From Auanema rhodensis (Eukaryota > Animalia > Nematoda): a stretch of DNA of 64,000 nucleotides. Shown here piece after piece: positions 19,708 to 41,567 of the stretch. The stretch lies in the NCBI GenBank assembly GCA_964057225.1, contig OZ059896.1, forward strand, positions 6,510,001-6,574,000. Reading direction: 5' to 3'. The notes beneath the pieces were generated by a model. The model was not told where the DNA came from and did no database searches. It saw only the letters and a list, made by a program, of their open reading frames with translations. Every line of letters starts with the position of its first letter. Positions within the stretch are counted from its first letter, which is position 1. Both the position numbers and the translations under genes were made by a program.

Positions 19708-21503
19708 TTATTGATTAATAACACTATTATATGAATAATTTGAAATTAAAAAATCTCTCCAAGCTACATTTCCTCCTAAAATTAGTGATGGAATAAACTT
19801 TGGTAATATAGATGTATTTGATAATAATCGTTTCAAATTGAATTTTTGTCGTAACATTTCAACAGAATCTGTATCAATCTAAATTAATAAATTAATATAT
19901 TTATAAATTAAAATTAAAATTAAAAACTTACTCTATAACAATGACTTATATCTAAATCAACTAAATTATTACATTGAAGTAATATATTTACAATTTCTGT
20001 TGTAATCTTATTACATGAACTTATATTTAAACTTTTTAAGTTTGGTAACATTTCTGAAAAAAAAAATTAATTTTATTTATAATTAAATTATATAAACATA
20101 CTTAATTCTATTAAAGAATTTATAGTTATACGAGAACATTTTGAAATTGAAAGATTTTGAAGTTTATTACAATTTCTTAGAATTGTTATTAATGATTCAT
20201 CATCAATATCTGTTTCATTAGCATGTAATTCTCTAAATATATATATATATAGTTATATAGTTATATAGTTATATAGTTATAGTTAACCTTAAATTTCGAA
20301 GACATGCTATTGCTTGAAAATCAGCAATATTACTTGGTTTTGATACATCCAAATATTCTAAAGTTTCAACTAAACAATCTAATTTAGTTAATTCTTGTGA
20401 CCATTGTAATAAAATATAATTTAATGTTAATGATTGAAGTCTAAAATAATTTATATAATTAATAATAATAATTATAATAATTTACCTTTTATTTTGTAAA
20501 AAAGTCAGATCATCAATTTGTAATAATGCACCAGATATTGAAAGTTTTCGAATTGTTGGAGATATACATTTTAATACAGTTGAACTTAATTCAAGTTTTT
20601 GAAAAAGTAAATCACCCTGTAAATTAAAAATTATTTCTATTCAATCAATCAATCAATAATTCAAATAAAATATTTGTTTTTTTAAAAAATATTATGATAA
20701 CATGAAATATATACATGTATGTATGTATGTATATTGTGTGTTTCATGTAAATAATAAATACAAATTATATTGAAAAACATTGAATAATTTGAAATAAAAA
20801 GAATTATTATCATATATACTATACTATACTATACTGTTTATATAATATATAAATAATATTACTAACCATAAATTGAAATTCTTGTAGATTTTTAGCTTTT
20901 TTCAATAATCGACAAAAACTTCGTTCAATTATTTCACGACAATCTGGTGATCTTGGAAAGCTACAGTCAACAATTGATATTAACTATAATAAGGTTAACT
21001 ATATGAATATATAAATAAATTATTTTTATTGATATTACCTCTAATGTTTCAGATAATTGTTCCAACTTTTCAATTGCTGCAAGGGTTAGAATCATACGAC
21101 GAATCTTGATTCTCTTTAAACGTGGAGCATGTATACTAAGTGATGTCATGAAATCACGTGTAACATGATAAGGGCTTGTTGATAAACATAAATTATAATA
21201 TAATTTATTTTTATTTGGCTTTGTACCAAGAGCTGCTATTTGAATTTCTTCCAAATTTTTACCATAAATTTCTAAAATTTCAAAATTTTTATTTATTCTC
21301 TTAAAATATTGAAATTTACCTATAATTTCAGACATATATGATGGTTCAGAGAGTACAGTTTGAAATTCTGTTTCAAAATTCAATACTGTTCGTCGTGAAA
21401 AGGTTTCAGATGCTAATCGACGCCAATGACGATTAACATTGCGACATCTCATGAGATCATGTGGATTGAGATATTGGAATACATGTCGAATAACATCATC
21501 CAT
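19708..21503 (-). CDS. F-box/leucine-rich-repeat protein
   Basis: F-box MDDVIRHVFQYLNPHDLMRCRNVNRHWRRLA, followed by LRR-type exons (LQNLSISKCSRIT, LKSLNISSCNKIT, LVDLDISHCY); stop at 19708. Confidence 0.85.
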
Positions 21504-22865
21504 TCCTATAAAAAATATTTAAAATATAAATAATTTAATAAAGAATATAAGAATATAAATAAAATATATAGAAATATAGATAAATAATTTCTACTGGTTG
21601 AACCATATAAGGTTTATTAGGTTGTTGTGGTGACAAAAGCCGGATTAGATTAGGTCGTCAGGCAGACAAGCATCTGACGCCTGAATCCAACATTATTTTA
21701 GCATATGCCTTAAGATGTGCAATTAGAAAAGCACATTGTTAGATAAAAGACAAATACAATAATGATATATAGTATAAGATATATAGTATAGTTGTAATAA
21801 AGTTTATATTAGATTGACTTAGACAAATGAATAAAGATTTTTTTTTTTTGAAATTCAAATATTTGCTCAATCTACTAATTGCAGAGTAAGAATTTTTCAA
21901 TAAATTAATAAAATAAATAATTGATTTTAAAATCAAATAATTTAAATTTTTCATTAAATTTTGTAAAAAAAAAAGAAATTTTTATAAGAATCAAATGTAT
22001 AAACGATATGTTGAATCATATTGATTTGACGTCAATGTTTAGAACACTGAAAATGAAAAAGCAAAACACAAACAGATGTGTTGAAAAGAATTTTAAAACT
22101 TATTTAATTCAAAAGAAAATGATTATTATAGAATATACTTTAGACTATATTTGGATATATAAGATGAAAGAGAACTAAATAGAGAGAGAGAGGAGGAAAA
22201 TAAGAGGAGATAAAGAGGTTATGAGGCTAAGAGAGGGGGAGTGAGAGAGAACTAAGCTTAGAAGCAATATAATTAGCATATCAAGATGTTTCCGGTCGGC
22301 TGTAATGGCTTTAAAAGCTTCAATCAAACTAAATACTACTAGAATTTCATCTAATTAGTCTATGAAAGCTGTTATAACATGAAATATGAATCACACAACG
22401 TCAACTACTTTACTACAACAATGAAGTAAAATGTTTTTTTGGAACAAAACAGAAAAATAGGAGTCAACAGCATTATGACTTGTTTCGGAATCATATCTAC
22501 TATGTATTTCCTGATGGCATTATGAATCCGGAAAAGACAAATGAGAAATGAAAAGAAGAAGCAGCAGATGATTGTCCTCCTCTTCATAATGTCTTTACTC
22601 TTTCTACGATGATTTTCTTGTTTCTGAACTGACGTTCGGTTTCTCTCTCATCTCTCATTCGTTCTTTCATTCTCTCTACCTCGCAGAACGTCTGTCTATC
22701 TCCATGTTTTACCAAATCGTACACTATGTATTTCATCTGTAGAACACGTTTCAACTTCAAAGTAGAGAGGAATAAAGAAGAAGAAGAAAGAAAGAAAGAA
22801 AATGAACGGTTCTAGTATTAACCTTCGCTTTTCATATATAACTCTTAGTACTTTTACTCTTTCTT

Positions 22866-25637: not shown

Positions 25638-26189
25638 TGTATATAAATATATAAAATAAAAGAATATTTTATATTAAAATAAAATATTTAATTAATAATA
25701 AATATTTGACAAAAATATATTTCTTTTTCTTTCTTTTTTTTTGATTAAAAATGAAATCTATAGATATGAATGTATAGAAATTGATTTTATATATTCTTAC
25801 TACTTTTATATAGTTTAGAAAACACAATAGAATTGAGAAAATATAACAAAATTTTCTTTTAGAAAATCGGATTAGAAAAAATATCTTTTATATTTGAAAA
25901 AGGTCATAACTTAGAATGACCGTTTATTTGTGAAAATTCTTTCGAACTAATCTTATTGAATCTCTTTTCATCCAGTTATATTCAAGAGGTTACAAATCTT
26001 TTATGAAGCTTGAATCTTATATTATAGAAGACAATATTAAAGAAATTCTAAATAAATAATTCTAAATAATAAATAAAAAAAATATATATATATATAGTAT
26101 ATAGTATATATAATTATTTTATATAATTTTAATTTAATAAAGATGTCAGACAGCTAATGATGATGAAGATGTGTTGCTGCTACTTCTAG

Positions 26190-26223
<34 letters not shown>

Positions 26224-26718
26224 GCTATTGTATGTCAAAATATAAGAAAAGAAAGAAAATAATCTTTTTTTCTTTTTCCTCTATTTTCATTCTTTTGTAT
26301 TTCATTTTCTTTTTTATCACAACGATCATAATGCATCCAAGCAAACCAAATATGTAAAAACCTGTTTTATTTAAAAAGTCGTAATATATGAAATACATAT
26401 ATACATATAAATTTATATAAATTTATATAAATTTATATATAAATTTATTAAAAATTAATAAATTAGATGTAACTATATGTATATTTACTAATACATAGGT
26501 GTATATTATTAATATAATATTGTTTGATTTGAATATTATATTATTTCATTATATAAATAATAATTTATTCAAAAATAAAAGAAAAAAATAAAAATATAAA
26601 AGGGAAATAAAGAACAAAAGCATACAGATTCATGTCTTTTTTCATTTATTCTTTTAATTTTTTTTTATATTTACTTTAATAAATTCTTATATAGTATATA
26701 CTAACTATAAACAATATA

Positions 26719-27888
26719 CAGTCATGCGCGATAAAAGTCGGACACCCCTATGTTAGAGGCCCCAAAAAAAAATTTCAATTTCAGGTTCAAGTATCTTCAT
26801 ATCGATTAAAATTCGAGATAAAATGATGAAAACTGAATTTTTTTTAAATTATTAAAGTTTAAATTTGAATATATTAATTTTTTTGATGTTTTTGCATATA
26901 TAAATTTTTAAATTTTTAAATTTTTAAATTTAAGATGGTTAGAGGCAAGAAAACAACCCCTGAAGTTTGTTCAATTATTTTGATCATGAAAAGCAAAGGA
27001 ATCAGCATAAGAAAGATAAGCGATCTGCTATCAATCCCAAGGAGTACAGTTCAAGATGAATGGAAACAATCTCATAAACCATACAAGGTTGATATGAGAG
27101 GAAGGGAACGAAAAACAACCCAGGGACAAGATAATATGATGGTGAGGCTTGTACAACGACATCCTGACATGACATTATCCGAGTTAAGCCAGCATATTTT
27201 TCGAATGTTCAAGATTCAGCTTCATCCCTCAAACGTAAGAAGAAGATTGATCGTAAAAAATCTAAGAGCTCGTGTACCAGCTCAGTTACGAACAGGCTGA
27301 AAAGAATTCAATTTGCTCAGGAGCATTTGAATTGGACGTATCAAGATTGGTCGTCAGTCATATTTACCGACGAAAGCAAATTTTGCTTATTTGGTAATGA
27401 CGGACCAGGATTCATCAGAAGACCTGTGAACCAGCGCTACAACCCCAAGTTTATGAGGCCAACTGTGAAGCATGGTGGAGGAAACGTCATGATCTGGGGC
27501 TGCTTTTGTTCCACCGAAGCCCAATTTCCAATCGCGAGATCTCAACCCGATCGAACATCTTTGGAGAGAACTTGGTCGACGTGCTGCCAAATTCCCTTGT
27601 TCGAACAAGGATGAGAAGTTCAGAGTCCTAGGGACCCTATGAAGAGAAATTTCGCCGGAAATTCTGAAGAAGCTCGTGGAATCAATGCCAAGAAGACTTC
27701 AAGCTGTGATCGATAATTTTGGGTACCCCACAAAATATTAATAAACTTGTTCTTTATTTTTTTTTAAGTTCATTTTTTGATTCTATAGTGTTTTTCAACA
27801 CTTCTACTATTTTTTTCGATTTTTTGTAGTTTGCTTCAAAAGATACAGGGGTTTCTAGTAGGTGTCCGACTTTCATCGCACATGACTA
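26719..27888 (+). mobile_element. Tc1/mariner DNA transposon, internally deleted (non-autonomous)
   Basis: 28-bp TIRs CAGTCATGCGCGATAAAAGTCGGACACC (26719-26746) and GGTGTCCGACTTTCATCGCACATGACTA (27861-27888), flanked by TA; the empty site is visible in the duplicate at ~32811-32840. Confidence 0.95.
26935..27741 (+). pseudogene. Tc1-family transposase pseudogene
   Basis: HTH region, WSSVIFTDESKF, TVKHGGGNVMIWGCF, then a direct jump to DLNPIEHLW..SMPRRLQAVIDNFGYPTKY. The middle catalytic Asp region is deleted, with frameshifts and a premature stop. Confidence 0.92.
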
Positions 27889-28302
27889 TATTTTATATTT
27901 TTAATAATAAAAAATAATATAAAAATCAAATTAATTAATAAAAATCTATATTATATTTTGAATCTCTTTTCATCCAGTTATATTCAAGAGGTTACAAATC
28001 TTTTATGAAGTTTTTTTATGAATATAATTTTAATTTAATAAAGATGTCAGACAGCAAGAATATGTATTTTGCCGTTCTAGCGCACCTTTTTGCCCATCCT
28101 TAATTTTCGAATTTTTAAGCCATTTTAAGGCTTATCTTCATTGATTTTGTATCTCAACTCTTCGAACAAGTGTCCTTTTAAACAATTTTCAAAAATGGTA
28201 AAAAGGTCGAAATGCGCTACCCTAAAAATGTGGTCGAAATCCAGTGGTCGAAATGGTCGAGAAAAATGCGCTAACATTTCGAATGAAAATAATGTTCAAT
28301 AA

Positions 28303-28752
28303 ATGGTGAAGTCCAGAGGATCTGCGTCGCAAGCTCCTCCAGGAGTGCCTGAGAATCTAAAATTCCATAAAAACCTTAGAGCTCTAACAAATAGTGATCT
28401 TGAAGAACTTGTAAAACTATTAAAGATAAGAAACTTCAGAAGAATCATTACGAGAGACACCTTACCACTTCAAGAAATTAAAGAAAAAGAAGTTGGTATA
28501 ATTAATTTAGATTCTTCTAGTGGTAAAGGTACTCATTGGGTTCGTTATTCTAAAAATAAAGGAAAGATTTATTACTTTGATTGCTTCGGACTTGATCCTC
28601 CTTTACAACTTCAAGAATATCTCAAGAGTAGAAATAAAAACGATAAAATAAAGCTTTCAACATTCAAAGTTCAAGATTTTGGAACACATCATTGTGGTTA
28701 TTGTTTACTACTTTTAAAATTATTAGAAAATATGATTTTCAGAAATCAGTAA
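28303..28752 (+). CDS. Maverick/adenovirus-type cysteine protease (adenain, peptidase C5); C-terminus possibly truncated
   Basis: LTNSDL, GIINLDSSSGKGTHWV, YYFDCFGLDPP, VQDFGTHHCGYC match the His/Asp/Gln/Cys adenain pattern; intronless. Confidence 0.9.
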   Translation: MVKSRGSASQAPPGVPENLKFHKNLRALTNSDLEELVKLLKIRNFRRIITRDTLPLQEIKEKEVGIINLDSSSGKGTHWVRYSKNKGKIYYFDCFGLDPPLQLQEYLKSRNKNDKIKLSTFKVQDFGTHHCGYCLLLLKLLENMIFRNQ

Positions 28753-29005
28753 TTGGTCTGATGTGAATGCCATCATCCATTACAACACCTTTCGGATACA
28801 CCAGAGATAATCCAGTTTTATTCAAATCATAAGTCTTGGATAATCAATCCAAGCATAATTGAATTGCAACATTCTCACCTTAAAATCATCGAACATATTA
28901 CAAGCTGTTGCGGTGTGATGAGGCCGTGTGAAATAATATATTTATTCTAAGTAGAATAAACAACTAAACATAATAATCGAGGAAGAAATAAAGAAATACA
29001 ATCAA

Positions 29006-29903
29006 TTACACAACAAAAACGGAATAAGAACACTTGAAAGGAGTACCACCAAGAATAATAGTATTATTTACTTTTTTGATATTAACCTTTGGATCAGTTC
29101 CAACAATAAAAACCTTATTGAATTCTGCCTCAAGATTTTTGGTATCAAATGTTGCAAATATATTAACAAATTTTTCAATATCGCTTATGAATCCTTCATA
29201 TTCACTCGGCTTGAAATAAGTGGAACCATAAACACTCGAGTGCAACCTAAATTTACTTAATAGTTTTAAGAGAAATAGAAGAACCAAAAAATTCTAACTA
29301 AAAATAAATATAAAGGAAAATCTACTATAATATATAAAACAACTGTGCAATAAAACATAAACTTAAATAGCTTACTTTTCGGCCGTTGTCCAGTATTCCT
29401 TCATTTCAATTGCTATTCTGACGTTTTGAACGGCACAGATGATCGCGAAATTACAGAAGTAAGTCAAAGATTTATGCGATTTGATGTCGATACCTGAAAC
29501 CTTCAGATAAAAACATCCAATAAGCAATATATATTACCTCCGGACAATAGGAACTGCTTCTTCACAGCATAGATCGCGGCAAACCACAATTTCTCGGCTG
29601 CTTGAATGATGTCTGGCGGCGATTGACTGTGATAGAACCGAGCCTTCTCGATAAACGTTTTCACGTCGTATTCCTCCATTTCTTTCTGAAAAACAAAATA
29701 ATTTTTTAAAAATTTGTTTGTTAACTCGTAGTTTATTTTAAGAAAACTTATTAGCACCCAAAAATCAAAATAAATCATACCAAAAACTCCCAGCCACAAT
29801 CATCAACAAGCACGTTTTCTTTGAATTGATCGCGTAGACGGTCAAAAGTCTCTTCGTCATCGCAAATCAAACGATCGCCATTTACGAAAAATTCCTTAGG
29901 CAT
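29006..29903 (-). CDS. PaREP1/HEPN-like protein, 209 aa from the Met at 29903; 4 exons; true start may lie upstream
   Basis: Exons 29903-29781, 29685-29538, 29493-29376 and 29246-29006 splice (GT-AG; phases 0,1,2) into an open 630-nt frame containing IIQAAEKLWFAAIYAVK, KSHKSL and YWTTAEKLHSSVYG. Confidence 0.68.
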
Positions 29904-30182
29904 AGGGTTAACGCTACTTCTAAAAAGAGCTTTAATGGAAGAATGCGATGTTAACAGTTTTTCTCCTTCCTGTTCGTCTATTTGTCTTCTATTCTAGTTA
30001 AAAGAGTCGCGTGTCGCGTCGCGTGCGCCTAGTTCAACTGGGGCAATTGTGTGATTGTGCTCGGTCACACTTCTAGGAAGCTTTGCTTTCGCTGCTTACG
30101 CCTTATTTCAATTTTGACCATCTTTTCTAAAAAAATCCTTGAAATTTTCAATTCTGACTTATCCTGAAGAATTCGAGAAAAT

Positions 30183-30579
30183 CTATGGTTTTTGAATACT
30201 TTTTTGAATGAAAGCTATTTGTTCTTCTGGTGTTCTTTTTTTAGTTATTTTAGAAATGTCTATCAATCCTATAGATTTGGGATTTCCAGAGGTCTTTGAT
30301 TCTACCAATCCTCCAAATGACGCAGTTGAAGGATGCTTTGCTGACGCTCTAGAAATATTTGATTCGAAATCATCATCATACTCCTTCACCAGGTGAATGT
30401 CTTACAGATCCTTCGGATTCAGCGAAAGCAAGCTTCCTAGAAGTGTCTGTGAATTTTCTAATATTCTTATTTAAATAATCTACACTACAACCAATTTCTC
30501 TGCAGAATTTTGTTTTCTTGATGTAAACATTTTTATTTTTGTAATCAATCCAGGCATCATATAATTTTCTATTACTCAT
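30183..30579 (-). pseudogene. Frameshifted small Maverick ORF with an HTH-like N-terminus
   Basis: Two overlapping ORFs (30376-30579 and 30183-30389); KKTKFCREIGCSVDYLNK resembles a helix-turn-helix. Confidence 0.4.
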
Positions 30580-30653
30580 TTTTAATTTATATCTTTGTGT
30601 AGCAAAAAAGTAAATCTTTGATTTATATCATTAAAAATTATCAATAGATTATA

Positions 30654-31151
30654 ATGAATACTAATGAATACTTTTGGATACTAATGGATACTAAAGATTC
30701 GAAGTTATCACGAAGTGATGAACATAGTTACAAATATGCTTTTATTAAACACTTAACATCAGAATGTAAAAGTGAATGCAAAAGTATAATAATTAATTGT
30801 CTCGGAATTTCTAATAAAAAGAAATCTATGATGCTCAAAGAAGTAGAAAAAGCATTTCAATTAGAAAGAGATGAACACAATGAACTGAGAAAGAAGTATA
30901 ATGAGAAACAAAAGGAACAAATAGTAGAAATTCCTTTAGTTGATCTTTCTCTTACTCTAAAGAATAAGAAGACATTGACAAATCGAGAATGTTTAGATTT
31001 TCTCAATGATCTAGATATAGATGATACACTTCTTAGTGATAAGTTTAAAAGAGTGGATGTTTCTGAAGAATTTTCAAATATTTCGAGAGCATATGTAAAT
31101 GAAGAGAATAACATTATTCAGCGTCAACAGTGTAAGCTTCCTCAAAGCTAA
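30654..31151 (+). CDS. Uncharacterised intronless Maverick ORF (165 aa), probably truncated
   Basis: Long intronless K/E-rich ORF inside the Maverick block; it ends at the junction with an inverted fragment. Confidence 0.45.
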   Translation: MNTNEYFWILMDTKDSKLSRSDEHSYKYAFIKHLTSECKSECKSIIINCLGISNKKKSMMLKEVEKAFQLERDEHNELRKKYNEKQKEQIVEIPLVDLSLTLKNKKTLTNRECLDFLNDLDIDDTLLSDKFKRVDVSEEFSNISRAYVNEENNIIQRQQCKLPQS

Positions 31152-31340
31152 AAAGTTAAAAACCTATGTTGAGCAGGTAGATCTTTCTTTTTTATCCTTT
31201 TCTGGCGAATCAATTCATCGACAATAGAATGAATTTTATTATATTCACCATTATTCCCAGCTTGATATGAACCTACTGATAATCTTAATGAATCCAGTAG
31301 AGTATTAATATCAGAAGGTAAAATGATTGATATTGAGATA
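31148..31340 (-). pseudogene. Fragment of a conserved Maverick/adintovirus protein C-terminus
   Basis: ILPSDINTLLDSLRLSVGSYQAGNNGEYNKIHSIVDELIRQKRI resembles the recurrent Polinton motif LPSDPNEL..RL.LL..S..AGN....EI..I.DEL (from recall). Confidence 0.65.
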
Positions 31341-31546
31341 AGATGATTAATCAAACTTCCTGAAACCTGAGAAGTTTGAATGATCATTCTCAAAAAAATC
31401 AAGAAAATCCATTACCACCTCCAGATGAGATTTTTCCTATGGATGATTTGATTTTTATTTAACAAAACGATATAGAAAATGCTAATTCAAGAATAAGAAA
31501 TTATAGAAGCAAGAAAAACAAAGATTTCCTAGAAAATCCTTTTGAA

Positions 31547-32320
31547 ATGATCGAAGAGAAAGGTATTGAATTTTACACCACGATTCTAAAAAAGAGATTG
31601 ACTTCTTTTCTCAAGAAGAAGCAAAATACTGTAGTAAATGGTATTTACAAAAATACTAATGTGAGAATAACGCTATATTTAGAATATGAAACAAAGAAGC
31701 CTGATTCTACTGATCCGCATAAGATTCATGTAAATACGAAAACTCAACTTTTACATTCTGGTGAAAGTAGGGAAGAATTCTATCAAGCAACATGTAGCAC
31801 ATTAATGAATGACGTGGAGAATAGAGAACATCATGCTTCAGGATTAGTGATAACTAGGTTTTCGAGATTGACGATGTTTCAAACTAAAACTGATGTAATG
31901 ATAGGAGCATACCGAATTCTCAGTTTGTTATTAAGAAAAGGTCTGTTTTAAATATCCAGAACAAAGATAACATGTGTTTCAAGTGGTGTATTCTAGCTCA
32001 TCTACATCCTGCTAAAAGAAATAAAGAAAGAGTTACTAAATACACGTCTTTTAAGGATAAATTGAATTTTGATGGACTTGAATTTCCTTTCAAGTTTGAA
32101 TAATTTAAGTGTTCATGTTTTTGCATATGAATACTCTATTTCAAATTATGCTCAAACGAGAAATAATTACCGACCTACACCCGATGATTATGAACATAGA
32201 ATATATAAAATTCGTCATTCAACTTATAAATGTGAAAAAGAAAGAACTGTTAACCTCTTTTATAATGAAGATTCAGAAGGTAATGGACATTTTAGTCTTA
32301 GTCTTCACATATTTAAGTAG
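31547..32320 (+). pseudogene. Protein-primed DNA polymerase B (Maverick), N-terminal fragment, frameshifted and truncated
   Basis: ...ASGLVITRF..IGAY, then in another frame KRSVLNIQNKDNMCFKWCILAHLHPAKRNKERVTKY..LNFDGLEFP, then NNLSVHVF..VNLFY..GHF; stops before the exonuclease and polymerase domains. Confidence 0.85.
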
Positions 32321-33245
32321 ACTTAAGAAGCTATTGTATGTCAAAATATAAGAAAAGAAAGAAAATAATCTTTTTTTCTTTTTCCTCTATTTTCATTCTT
32401 TTGTATTTCATTTTCTTTTTTATCACAACGATCATAATGCATCCAAGCAAACCAAATATGTAAAAACCTGTTTTATTTAAAAAGTCGTAATATATGAAAT
32501 ACATATATACATATAAATTTATATAAATTTATATAAATTTATATATAAATTTATTAAAAATTAATAAATTAGATGTAACTATATGTATATTTACTAATAC
32601 ATAGGTGTATATTATTAATATAATATTGTTTGATTTGAATATTATATTATTTCATTATATAAATAATAATTTATTCAAAAATAAAAGAAAAAAATAAAAA
32701 TATAAAAGGGAAATAAAGAACAAAAGCATACAGATTCATGTCTTTTTTCATTTATTCTTTTAATTTTTTTTTATATTTACTTTAATAAATTCTTATATAG
32801 TATATACTAACTATAAACAATATATATATATTTTTAATAATAAAAAATAATATAAAAATCAAATTAATTAATAAAAATCTATATTATATGTATAACTTAA
32901 ATATTATTTTAAATATATTTGTTTTTTACATTTTTGTTTAAATTTGTCAATTAAAAATAAACAAAAATAATATAAAAATATTTATAAAAATTAAAAAAAA
33001 ATTAAAATAATAGAAATTAAATTAAAGGAACATATTTAGCCATGAAAGACATATAATTAAGAATTATTTACTATATTATTTATATAATATGTAATCCCTG
33101 ATTAGTTATGACCCGTAATATTGTGGATTTTTTCTTTTAAAATGAGAGCCTGAAAGAAAAAATATAATTATATCATAAAATTATATTAATTATGTTATAA
33201 AATCTTTAAATTCCGAATTTAAAAATCTTGATTTACCTTTATTTT

Positions 33246-35549: not shown

Positions 35550-36129
35550 ATCTTATACATTCTTTATAAGTTTATGTCATTAGAATACTTATCATTATAT
35601 TTATTTTTCAAATTTTTTATTATTATGTTTAACTAGATGACATCATTCTCTTTTTAGAATTTTGAAATTATATTCATGGTAGGAGGTCTCATCAATACCT
35701 CTTGAAATAGTTATTGAAATACATCCAAAAATAGACAAAAAACAGCTTTTGGAGATTGATAAAAAAGTCAAATACTTTTTGTTTTTCGAGAGATATTCTT
35801 GTTTGCAAAACAAAAGTTCATTTTTGGAGATACTTAATGTTTTCATCTTATGCTTTCATATACTAAATAAAAACTTTACTTTTTACCCTTTTAATTATAA
35901 ATAAAAAATATTTATTACATTAGAGGGGAAAGCCCTTGAAACTTTGTTTTCAAATGACGTATACGGCAGAGAACGATTTGCAACAATGTCCGAAAAAACT
36001 TGAAAATAACAGTTGTGAATCAGATGTCTCGTTTTTTGGACATTATTTGCTCAGATGATCAGGTTGATGCTGCGGTAACATCAGGATGTGATGACTATGG
36101 TTGTGGTTGTAGTTGTCGTCAGCCAATTC

Positions 36130-37281
36130 GAAAATGGTTTCTGGCTTCTGTACAGGACGAAAAAGGCAAATTAGGATGACGTGATTTAGGTCAACAGAAA
36201 CTAAGAGAGAGTGTAAGCTAATATGAGAGAAAGACTCATGTTCGAGCAATAATCAAACAAAAGCTCAAGTTTTTCTATTTTGTCTGATTCTCTCATAAAA
36301 TCTTTCTGAATGAGCATTATATAAGCCATTCAATTATTTGATGTTCTTTTCTTTTGTTTTGAATGATCTGTATTGATTTGAAAAGGATTCTCCATAAAAA
36401 GTTGTTATGAAATTAAGAAAATTTCAATTTATTTGATAATATGAGGAGCAGGGTTATCTTTTTTTTGAATGTTAGAGATTTCGTGTAAGGAAACGTCATC
36501 AACAGTTCTCCAGAAGAAACAAGACCCTTGAGCAATCAAATGAGAGAAAGAATGCTTTCAAAGAAATGAGAGAGAGAGAGAGAGATTTCACTTCCCTATT
36601 CTCTTTATCATCCCTTTCCTTTTTTTGTATTGAAAAGCTTATTTCTTTTCCGGATATTCAAAGTTATAAGCTTAAATAATGAAAATAAAAAGAAGAAATT
36701 AGAGGAAACAGACATCACATGGAATAAAAATCAGAAAATTTCAAAATTAATTTGATATTTAGCTTACTGTCTTGTCAACATTTGAAGTAAAATTTACAAT
36801 AAACTAGATGGGAACTAGTTTGAACCAATTACTTGATATCAGAGTTTCATTCAAAGGAGATGCTAATCAAAAACAAAAGTTTGAGAAAACCTTTCAAGAC
36901 ATGAAAACAGATAATATTTATTTCTGATAGATTAAGCTTCATTTAAGAAATGACTAAACCCTTTTAACTTTGATCTTATCTCATAATTATATGAAAAAAC
37001 GATTAACTATGTGATTAAATAAGGTAATTCTAACTAGATGTAATAAAGTTTTATTAGTTTAAAACAAATCTTCCACTTCCTGTTTATGAATGAAACGTTT
37101 TTCATGTTAAATAAGTTGTTTAAAGAGGGAAACTAAATTTTGTATTCAAAGGGAATTTTATTTTTTCCGGATTTATTCATACAATTGTCTTAAAAATCTT
37201 TTTTTTTTCTCAAGTACGATGAATGAGATTGATCTTCTTATTAGAAAAAAAACTATGAATGAAGACGAAACTGTGAACCTT

Positions 37282-37338
<57 letters not shown>

Positions 37339-37511
37339 TAAAGAGTTATAGAAGGGGTAGTTGGGAATAAGAGAGCGAAAGGACATCTAAAACCTTATAG
37401 GTATCACATTTCATCTTCACACATCACAACTACATAAGTACTTTGCCACACAATATGATGTGGCTAAGATGGTCGACGTCACAACATCATCATCATTTAC
37501 CTGTTACGGCT
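36130..37511 (+). repeat. Left arm of a 1382-bp inverted duplication
   Basis: Reverse complement of 39774-41155, including the same (GA)22 tract length. Confidence 0.95.
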
Positions 37512-39773: not shown

Positions 39774-39946
39774 AGCCGTAACAGGTAAATGATGATGATG
39801 TTGTGACGTCGACCATCTTAGCCACATCATATTGTGTGGCAAAGTACTTATGTAGTTGTGATGTGTGAAGATGAAATGTGATACCTATAAGGTTTTAGAT
39901 GTCCTTTCGCTCTCTTATTCCCAACTACCCCTTCTATAACTCTTTA

Positions 39947-40003
<57 letters not shown>

Positions 40004-41155
40004 AAGGTTCACAGTTTCGTCTTCATTCATAGTTTTTTTTCTAATAAGAAGATCAATCTCATTCATCGTACTTGAGAAAAAAAAAAGATTTTTAAGACAA
40101 TTGTATGAATAAATCCGGAAAAAATAAAATTCCCTTTGAATACAAAATTTAGTTTCCCTCTTTAAACAACTTATTTAACATGAAAAACGTTTCATTCATA
40201 AACAGGAAGTGGAAGATTTGTTTTAAACTAATAAAACTTTATTACATCTAGTTAGAATTACCTTATTTAATCACATAGTTAATCGTTTTTTCATATAATT
40301 ATGAGATAAGATCAAAGTTAAAAGGGTTTAGTCATTTCTTAAATGAAGCTTAATCTATCAGAAATAAATATTATCTGTTTTCATGTCTTGAAAGGTTTTC
40401 TCAAACTTTTGTTTTTGATTAGCATCTCCTTTGAATGAAACTCTGATATCAAGTAATTGGTTCAAACTAGTTCCCATCTAGTTTATTGTAAATTTTACTT
40501 CAAATGTTGACAAGACAGTAAGCTAAATATCAAATTAATTTTGAAATTTTCTGATTTTTATTCCATGTGATGTCTGTTTCCTCTAATTTCTTCTTTTTAT
40601 TTTCATTATTTAAGCTTATAACTTTGAATATCCGGAAAAGAAATAAGCTTTTCAATACAAAAAAAGGAAAGGGATGATAAAGAGAATAGGGAAGTGAAAT
40701 CTCTCTCTCTCTCTCTCATTTCTTTGAAAGCATTCTTTCTCTCATTTGATTGCTCAAGGGTCTTGTTTCTTCTGGAGAACTGTTGATGACGTTTCCTTAC
40801 ACGAAATCTCTAACATTCAAAAAAAAGATAACCCTGCTCCTCATATTATCAAATAAATTGAAATTTTCTTAATTTCATAACAACTTTTTATGGAGAATCC
40901 TTTTCAAATCAATACAGATCATTCAAAACAAAAGAAAAGAACATCAAATAATTGAATGGCTTATATAATGCTCATTCAGAAAGATTTTATGAGAGAATCA
41001 GACAAAATAGAAAAACTTGAGCTTTTGTTTGATTATTGCTCGAACATGAGTCTTTCTCTCATATTAGCTTACACTCTCTCTTAGTTTCTGTTGACCTAAA
41101 TCACGTCATCCTAATTTGCCTTTTTCGTCCTGTACAGAAGCCAGAAACCATTTTC
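39774..41155 (-). repeat. Right arm of the 1382-bp inverted duplication
   Basis: Reverse complement of 36130-37511; begins 40 bp upstream of the ShKT ATG. Confidence 0.95.
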
Positions 41156-41567
41156 AGAAAATGTAATTCAAAATTAGTATATAACTGGTTATTATATAGT
41201 AATAATTGACATTGGTCTGAACATAAAAAACTCGATCGTCCTAGCTAACGTTTTCGAAACGTTACTGTCAAATGTCATCGTATGATTTTCCTATGAACAC
41301 TCAATGTACTACTCAGTTTCTTCAAAGCAAGCCGTTTAAAAATTTAAAAGCATTATTGGTATCAAGAACAAGCCGATCAGAATATTCAACTGCTTCACTA
41401 AAACTTGCCTAACGAAGCCAAATACGTTTAAAAATTATATTCGTTAAGTAGCACTTCAGTATTATAAATCCAAAGCTCATAAACTCAACTTGACTTCTTT
41501 CTCGAACACAATTGAAAAATCCCATAACCAATTTATAACAATTTAACATCAACCAAACAAAATCATC

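Follow-up and report, generated by a model that had tools for sequence, protein, structure and literature searches.

A spliced PaREP1/8-type HEPN gene in a Maverick remnant of the nematode Auanema rhodensis, a candidate passenger of the element

The stretch of A. rhodensis DNA analysed here (the window) covers 64,000 nucleotides of contig OZ059896.1, from position 6,510,001 to position 6,574,000 of the forward strand. It contains a minus-strand HEPN gene of four exons, running from 29903 to 29006, that lies in a remnant of a Maverick together with a protease ORF and several broken ORFs, and host sequence is duplicated on both sides of this remnant (Table 1). The 630 spliced nucleotides of the gene comprise 209 codons and a stop, and its introns, which measure 95, 44, and 129 nt, run from GT to AG in every case. 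This structure had been proposed from the letters alone in a first-pass annotation, and both statistics and assembled reads bear it out. In 200 block shuffles, the longest open frame obtained with three introns averaged 50 codons and did not exceed 109, and 209 codons were reached in none of them (0/200).

Table 1. Features of the remnant, the HEPN gene, and the flanking host sequence (window positions)
Feature	Position	Strand	Remark
Left copy of 498-bp host repeat (empty-site copy)	26221..26718		100% identical to 32327-32824
Broken Tc1-like transposon in left copy, separate from Maverick	26719..27892	+	terminal repeats at TA site; transposase HTH matches
Whole inserted Maverick remnant	28056..32326		4,271 bp; no terminal inverted repeat; replaces 66-nt host spacer
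Polinton/Maverick adenain-type protease ORF	28303..28752	+	convergent with HEPN gene
Minimum transcript (extent of spliced contig)	28966..29965	-	X10, 732 nt, 0 differences
HEPN gene, exon 4	29006..29246	-	second conserved His (His132, 29242-29240), HEPN helix 4, extra helix, C-terminal beta-hairpin
Intron 3	29247..29375	-	129 nt; absent from X10 contig; position apparently common to family
Exon 3	29376..29493	-	S-H motif (His97, 29476-29474) and W-x-x-A-E
Intron 2	29494..29537	-	44 nt; absent from X10 and X17 contigs
Exon 2	29538..29685	-	HEPN helices 1-2; Q-x-x-E-K-x-W motif about 29604-29584
Intron 1	29686..29780	-	95 nt, phase 0; absent from X10 contig; P0001 joined at same point
Exon 1	29781..29903	-	ATG at 29903; 21/35 aligned residues identical to Auanema P0001
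Broken ORF upstream of HEPN gene, two frames ("HTH-like")	30183..30627	-	no Pfam or PHROG match
167-codon open frame	30648..31151	+	no significant family match
Conserved Polinton ORF fragment	31199..31327	-	60% over 43 aa to L003 ORF 2391-3299, E 2e-13
pPolB-like gene, broken truncated N-terminal part	31463..32326	+	residues 87-342 of L082 1,300-aa ORF, E down to 6e-21
Right copy of host repeat, flanking remnant	32327..32889		32327-32824 100% identical to left copy

Twenty public runs from 10 studies contain the stretch or part of it, none of them recorded as RNA and seven of them flagged as possible sources. Contigs of four runs (X7, X10, X15, and X17) were compared with the window, and runs X18-X20 (share 0.07) were left out of this comparison. 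X10 and X17 are probably RNA, as guessed by the tool, and their contigs carry no expression level. A single X10 contig covers the whole gene without any difference and skips exactly all three introns, and in X17 intron 2 is skipped in a diverged copy of the gene. None of the three splice joints was found in X7 (possibly DNA) or X15 (kind not on record). In addition, four runs of one study contain 0.61-0.62 of the words, against 0.635 expected for the spliced transcript. The HEPN gene is thus confirmed as real and as transcribed into a spliced message, from the window copy or an identical one, the RNA nature of the run being the tool's guess. The X10 contigs leave most of the protease uncovered, which we counted neither way. 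In X17, a low-depth contig over most of intron 3 (29218-29370) shows one difference in 153 bases, whereas the exon contigs of the same run differ by 4-5%; it can be read as a second copy or a mosaic. The diverged copies in X15 and X17 have another 5' flank, with a splice-acceptor-like run directly before the ATG (window 29903), so the region upstream of the window copy is unlike theirs.

The codons of the gene had also been said to end in G or C more often than those of nearby host genes. This is true of the gene as a whole, whose GC3 is 0.415 as compared to 0.211 in eight host-looking open frames (taken from stop to stop, hence partly intronic) and 0.232 in four element frames, but GC3 is high only in exons 1-3 (0.41, 0.61, and 0.53), exon 4 being at 0.24. 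Among the part of the differences that was listed, the one exonic site is synonymous. At the break density of its neighbours, roughly counted as 3-4 breaks in 1.7 kb, a 627-nt frame would stay unbroken with a probability of 0.22-0.33, so the intactness of the gene is by itself no proof of selection.

With exon 2 as the query, 27 proteins were retrieved at E<=0.001 among 1.84 billion representatives. One of them, P0017, was dropped as a spurious repeat. Names are borne by 15 of the 26 genuine homologue clusters and all 15 are nematodes, namely Auanema sp. JU1783 (4 loci), Caenorhabditis bovis, C. auriculariae, C. remanei, Mesorhabditis spiculigera, M. belari, Ditylenchus dipsaci (3), Panagrolaimus sp. 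JU765, and Meloidogyne. The family is therefore found in six nematode genera of two suborders, with full-length members of about 210 aa, and the presence of several copies per genome (Auanema JU1783, C. bovis, and D. dipsaci) agrees with a family of the defence type. The homologue P0005 aligns along the whole HEPN gene (E 6e-42; 97/207 residues identical exon by exon, i.e. 47%) and was used as a stand-in for the window protein in the whole-protein scan and in folding; 40 of 78 residues of exon 4 are identical to C. bovis P0028. Pfam PaREP1 (PF05942) was detected in 15 of the 26 homologues and above the cut-off in five, including P0005 and P0030. Exon 2 of the window, scanned by itself, matched PaREP1 with an E of 0.043 (14.2 bits for a cut-off of 24.4). 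Atlas feature matches (0.83-0.86) correspond to PaREP1 clusters and, being below 0.9, are leads only. The PaREP1-type HEPN family named in the first-pass annotation is upheld by the Pfam matches together with the predicted fold described below.

Exon 4 as a query gave 28 candidates, none of which was scored. Family scans of viral_contigs, metagenome_contigs, and genome_contigs yielded no true relative, tblastn of P0019 found no match in plasmids, and no close prokaryotic relative was retrieved by these contig scans and the plasmid search. The sole match of the contig scans, L136, lies antisense to a long unrelated ORF and was rejected. Scans with NCBIfam, PADLOC, and PHROG gave nothing meaningful. 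The column of intron 3 is the end point of 6 of the 25 aligned homologues, and two Meloidogyne-linked ones diverge there. The position of this intron is apparently common to the homologues of the nematode HEPN family, and the introns would thus not be recent in the window copy. Since a paREP1/8 gene of Caenorhabditis was already reported in 2013 (Anantharaman et al. 2013, PMC3710099, main text), and given the apparently shared intron, the family is, as judged from sequence, old in nematodes and no fresh prokaryotic import. The earlier picture of a prokaryote-type protein that gained introns is right as to the real introns and the PaREP1 type but not as to the novelty that it implied. The C. 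remanei family members P0018 and P0030, which align to exons 2 and 4, carry a fused DEAD-box domain. The HEPN part of M. spiculigera P0007 is fused to a DEAD_2/Helicase_C_2 helicase; this could reflect a merge made by gene prediction or a further type of helicase fusion, in addition to the DEAD-box fusion of C. remanei.

The P0005 model (pLDDT 85.7) superposed best on 2hsb (Z 12.9, rmsd 3.0, 116 aligned), and its top eight VIA rows were all HEPN-clan or HEPN-like. Further Z scores were 10.6 for 1ufb, 10.1 for both 1wol and the sacsin HEPN, and 9.7 for SsR10 (2jpu), the same target as the PaREP1 entry 2q00; Foldseek placed 2hsb and 2q00 in its top rows (E 0.004-0.005). Z scores of 9.7-12.9 are moderate for a helical bundle, and the top rows are HEPN in agreement with the profile match. 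A four-helix HEPN fold is predicted for the gene product, read through its 47%-identical homologue. The core corresponds to residues 44-166 of the P0005 model, with about 45 extra residues at each end that no match covers. The N-terminal 40 or so residues of P0005, which correspond to the extension encoded by exon 1, are modelled with low confidence as beta-beta-alpha (pLDDT 51-62), have no Pfam match, and are too short for a full ubiquitin-like domain. The C-terminal part folded alone was uninformative (best Z 3.3). Searching PDB sequences with the family profile gave 2hsb as the best match (E 0.18), and the viral fold library gave no row at E<=0.001. In HEPN RNases, two subunits form a dimer and share an active site; the P0005 homodimer prediction scored 0.02, which weighs neither way.

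The conserved columns, in P0005 numbering (window numbering is lower by one), are W76 (25/25), K74 (24/25), K84 (24/25), H98 (21/24), E130 (20/22), and H133 (12/15), and the conserved polar residues are the Gln, Glu, and Lys of Q-x-x-E-K-x-W, the second Lys, His97, Glu129, and His132. The motifs on which the family had first been recognised (Q-A-x-E-K-x-W, S-H, W-x-x-A, and L-H) are all present in exons 2-4, the first as Q-A-A-E-K-L-W in exon 2, S-H and W-x-x-A-E in exon 3, and L-H at the opening of exon 4. The canonical R-x4-6-H, already said not to be obvious, occurs neither within exons 2-4 nor over the exon 3/4 junction. There is no Arg 5-7 residues before His132, and only one of 17 homologues has an Arg in this range. 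According to the main text of Anantharaman et al. 2013 (PMC3710099), HEPN RNases need the motif His, and the retention of this His with loss of the Arg is a hallmark of the PaREP1/8 branch. His97 falls at the alternative-His position of AF0298, as judged from the profile alignment and that same text.

The protease ORF, the conserved Polinton ORF, and the pPolB-like fragment support a position of the HEPN gene inside a Maverick remnant, as first proposed. The protease ORF had 188 homologues among 216 candidates, several with PF00770, and matched the protease of Polinton contig L003 at 55% (E 2e-34). L003 (1-8650) carries a near-complete Polinton set, with chromodomain integrase, A32 ATPase, double jelly-roll capsid, and protease, as well as a phospholipase A2-like ORF; given this set, the window piece is of Polinton/Maverick origin. 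The integrase, ATPase, and capsid of L003 have no match in the window, no terminal inverted repeat (TIR) was seen at the remnant ends, and 28056-32326 is a fragment of a Maverick and no whole element. The pPolB and HTH-like ORFs next to the HEPN gene had been called frameshifted. This is so for the pPolB-like gene, which has two frame changes and is then cut off, and for the "HTH-like" ORF; the protease, in turn, has an open frame of 149 codons and shows a frame difference only towards the end. The frame changes of the pPolB-like gene were considered as introns and rejected, the fragment being colinear with L082 and having no splice-site pair. It matches ORFs of 1,067-1,300 aa beside Polinton proteases in which the only Pfam domain is endonuclease VII, so that the label "polymerase" rests on the position and size of the matched ORF. 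The "HTH-like" ORF is indeed broken, but its HTH identity found no backing in Pfam or PHROG; its contig depth in X7 is above that of the HEPN gene. No minimal nucleotidyltransferase gene was found among the frames scanned near the HEPN gene in this partial remnant. An F-box gene (20967-21506, minus strand, E 2.6e-9) lies 7.5 kb from the HEPN gene, with no evidence of a tie between them.

An empty and a filled site stand side by side at 25956-27956 and 27958-32889. On the left, the host copy contains a GAT-rich spacer of 66 nt as well as the Tc1-like insertion, and in the right copy the Maverick remnant replaces the spacer. These paired sites can be read as a recent tandem duplication with an insertion or as two alleles joined in the assembly. 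As the host copies are 100% identical over 498 bp, the Maverick piece should be recent or polymorphic. No contig of the runs compared spans the whole remnant stretch.

The link between the gene and the element was followed in two other copies from other studies. In X15, a 1,103-nt contig contains the HEPN gene and protease bases 28553-28671 with a 178-bp gap between them, and this copy of the gene, compared over 976 bases that include the introns, has 54 differences and 8 gap letters. In X17, a contig joins the 3' end of the HEPN gene to the 5' region of the protease on the opposite strand, the extent of the piece being partly inferred from depth; the two genes are there arranged in tandem with the HEPN gene upstream, and contigs of the probable RNA run cover each of them. 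These two linked copies are about 94-96% identical to the window and laid out differently from it. Because they are 4-6% diverged with two rearrangements while the host duplicate is 100% identical, the link predates the insertion in the window. The three linked copies (window, X15, and X17) are at least 94% alike and could be explained by one capture in one lineage. The linkage to Mavericks put forward at first is therefore found again in the protease junction of two diverged copies. None of 135 other element loci (134 reached via the protease and one via the polymerase) carries the family (best E 1.4), but these are distant elements, with protease identity up to 63%. Among the matches listed (at least 120), the one named nematode protease, from Auanema, lies on a contig other than those of the four Auanema HEPN loci. 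In X7, contig cover is far deeper over the protease region than over the HEPN gene.

Spread between species by Mavericks had also been proposed. In a free tree of 16 proteins, which left out fragments and the window's own protein, the C. bovis copies fall together with those of Auanema and Mesorhabditis and not with C. remanei (89/88, unstarred), but forced monophyly of Caenorhabditis was not rejected by the AU test (p-AU 0.131), and the gene-tree check thus does not sustain the proposal. Maverick cargo in the WASP/KRMA sense is associated with core genes across species at about 20%, shows tree discordance or near-identity across genera, and is an intron-bearing, higher-GC gene inside the element; the HEPN gene is a gene of this last description. 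Taking these data together, we consider that the gene is probably carried by a Maverick lineage, and that it probably adds a third type of passenger to WASP and KRMA, the two known from Mavericks; that the family is a recurrent cargo across species is a tentative view only.

The PaREP1/8 HEPN family is already known in nematodes. The main text of Anantharaman et al. 2013 (PMC3710099) describes a paREP1/8 gene acquired by Caenorhabditis, with lineage-specific expansions and some DEAD-box ATPase fusions, and proposes RNA-directed defence, several nematode copies being perhaps inactive RNA receptors. The window gene belongs to the same family, which has several copies per genome, and it keeps the His and lacks the Arg; unlike the genes described in that text, it is a stand-alone protein of 209 aa with N- and C-terminal extensions, from a family in six genera, and it lies in a Maverick, a word that, like Polinton, has 0 occurrences in that main text. 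The predicted core superposes, via P0005, on archaeal/bacterial PaREP1/PaREP8 (PF05942; 2q00/2jpu) and HEPN-T AF0298 (2hsb) with Z 9.7-12.9. In contrast to the prokaryotic PaREP1/PaREP8 genes, the window gene has spliceosomal introns, about 45 extra residues per end, and no nucleotidyltransferase neighbour among the frames scanned, and its protein differs from a canonical HEPN RNase toxin by the incomplete R-x4-6-H.

Nematode Mavericks carry intron-bearing, higher-GC cargo, the WASP protease and the KRMA kinase, as described in the text of Widen et al. (bioRxiv 10.1101/2022.07.12.499685). Like these, the HEPN gene has introns and is higher in GC than the AT-rich genes of the element, which are intronless, and all belong to multi-copy families with several species in common (C. 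bovis, C. auriculariae, and M. belari). As far as that text goes, the HEPN gene differs by its fold, by the lack of a detected ubiquitin-like domain in the N-terminal 40 or so residues, and by its place beside the protease, WASP/KRMA cargo lying with the left TIR on one side and the integrase on the other. The remnant shares a protease, a conserved ORF, and a polymerase-like gene with the pPolB2-class nematode Polintons (Jeong et al. 2023, PMC10748475), and the nearest retrieved relative of its polymerase-like gene carries an endonuclease VII (HNH-type) domain, as pPolB2 does in that article; we infer that the remnant is of the pPolB2 class. Unlike the Polintons described there, it measures 4.3 kb and has no integrase, ATPase, capsids, or TIRs. 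HEPN and PaREP have 0 occurrences in PMC10748475 and its supplement text, and a link between HEPN and Mavericks is absent from the text of the Widen et al. preprint, whose supplement and journal version were outside the search. No such link in nematodes was found in the literature searched, where papers on HEPN and Polintons together are not on nematodes, as judged from titles and the starts of abstracts. Neither the wider range of genera nor the stand-alone form of 210 aa nor the link to Mavericks was found in this literature, and the supplements of Widen et al. or of the 2013 article could name the family.

The explanation that we favour, with a probability of somewhat less than one half, is that of an intact, spliced PaREP1/8-type HEPN gene which is a likely passenger of a Maverick lineage and would encode an RNA-cutting or RNA-binding defence protein. 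A Maverick lineage would have captured an intron-bearing host gene of the old nematode HEPN family, the captured gene would have moved together with the Maverick protease gene, and a 4.3-kb piece of such a Maverick would recently have been copied into the window site by a repair-type event and not by an integrase, as suggested by the lack of terminal repeats and by the host sequence duplicated on both sides. By analogy with other HEPN RNases, the protein would pair up, and His132 (the His of R-x4-6-H) and His97, with Glu72, Lys73, Lys83, and Glu129, would stand in for the missing Arg. It would act against the RNA of viruses or mobile elements, to the gain of its carriers and hence of the element. 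A defence effector that cuts or binds RNA is the likeliest role by such comparisons, and an inactive receptor is possible. A stronger version, in which an archaeal-type HEPN ribonuclease with a non-canonical two-histidine active site, domesticated and intron-bearing since early nematodes, forms a third class of cargo that is carried between nematode species by Mavericks as a portable antiviral or selfish-toxin module, seems unlikely.

The gene could also be an ordinary host gene captured once by a decaying Maverick, or one around which an element broke, and thus a neutral passenger of an otherwise vertical family. The age and breadth of the family, the apparently common intron position, the negative tree test (p-AU 0.131), and the absence of the family from all 135 other loci would be expected in that case, as would the far deeper X7 cover over the protease than over the gene and an intactness that is not significant. 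However, three copies with different rearrangements have all kept the linkage to the protease, an identical copy of the gene still gives a spliced transcript (in the probable RNA run), and the C. bovis copies group with Auanema/Mesorhabditis and not C. remanei in the free tree (89/88, unstarred); we consider a single neutral capture rather unlikely. The neighbourhood might also be unreal, two alleles or repeats having been joined in the assembly. Repeats of 498 bp and less stand on either side with 100% identity and no compared contig spans the whole stretch, but the junctions between gene and protease occur in contigs of two other studies, and such an artefact would touch the host flanks and neither the gene nor its link to the element; it is extremely improbable.

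Two further explanations concern whom the protein would serve. Some nematode antidotes are F-box proteins, and the HEPN gene has an F-box gene 7.5 kb away, the HEPN superfamily includes toxins, and the insertion looks recent or polymorphic, so that one could think of the selfish toxin of a toxin-antidote element, a maternal RNase killing the offspring without the linked antidote. A precedent exists in the Maverick cargo turned msft-1, as described in the text of Widen et al. (bioRxiv 10.1101/2022.07.12.499685). The remnant has no identified partner ORF, though, the canonical Arg is missing, and the broad conservation of the full-length 210-aa form is explained equally well by defence; the toxin reading is unsupported and we hold it to be improbable. 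The tandem arrangement with the protease gene in X17, both genes being covered in the probable RNA run, would suit an accessory gene by which the Maverick degrades or binds host RNAs or excludes competing viruses, with no benefit to the host. Against this stand the host-type introns, a GC3 unlike that of the element genes, the DEAD-box fusions of C. remanei, which point to host use, and the absence of the family from the 135 other element loci examined, and we regard it as very improbable.

In the literature searched, WASP and KRMA are the only described families of nematode Maverick cargo, and the patchy, multi-copy spread of nematode PaREP1/8 HEPN genes, noted in 2013, has no explanation. 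If the link between Mavericks and HEPN is true, it provides a route of spread, adds an RNA-acting effector to the cargo list, and supplies a small, expressed, and intact member with which it can be tested whether the Arg-less PaREP1 branch is an RNase; if it is a single capture, the result amounts to a sound annotation within an already known family and not much else. Elsewhere in the window, a 1,386-bp inverted repeat (36127-37511 and 39774-41159, 99.9% identical) surrounds 2.3 kb that contain host-looking frames with no Pfam match; no target-site duplication was seen, and the repeat can be read as a recent inverted duplication or as an assembly artefact.
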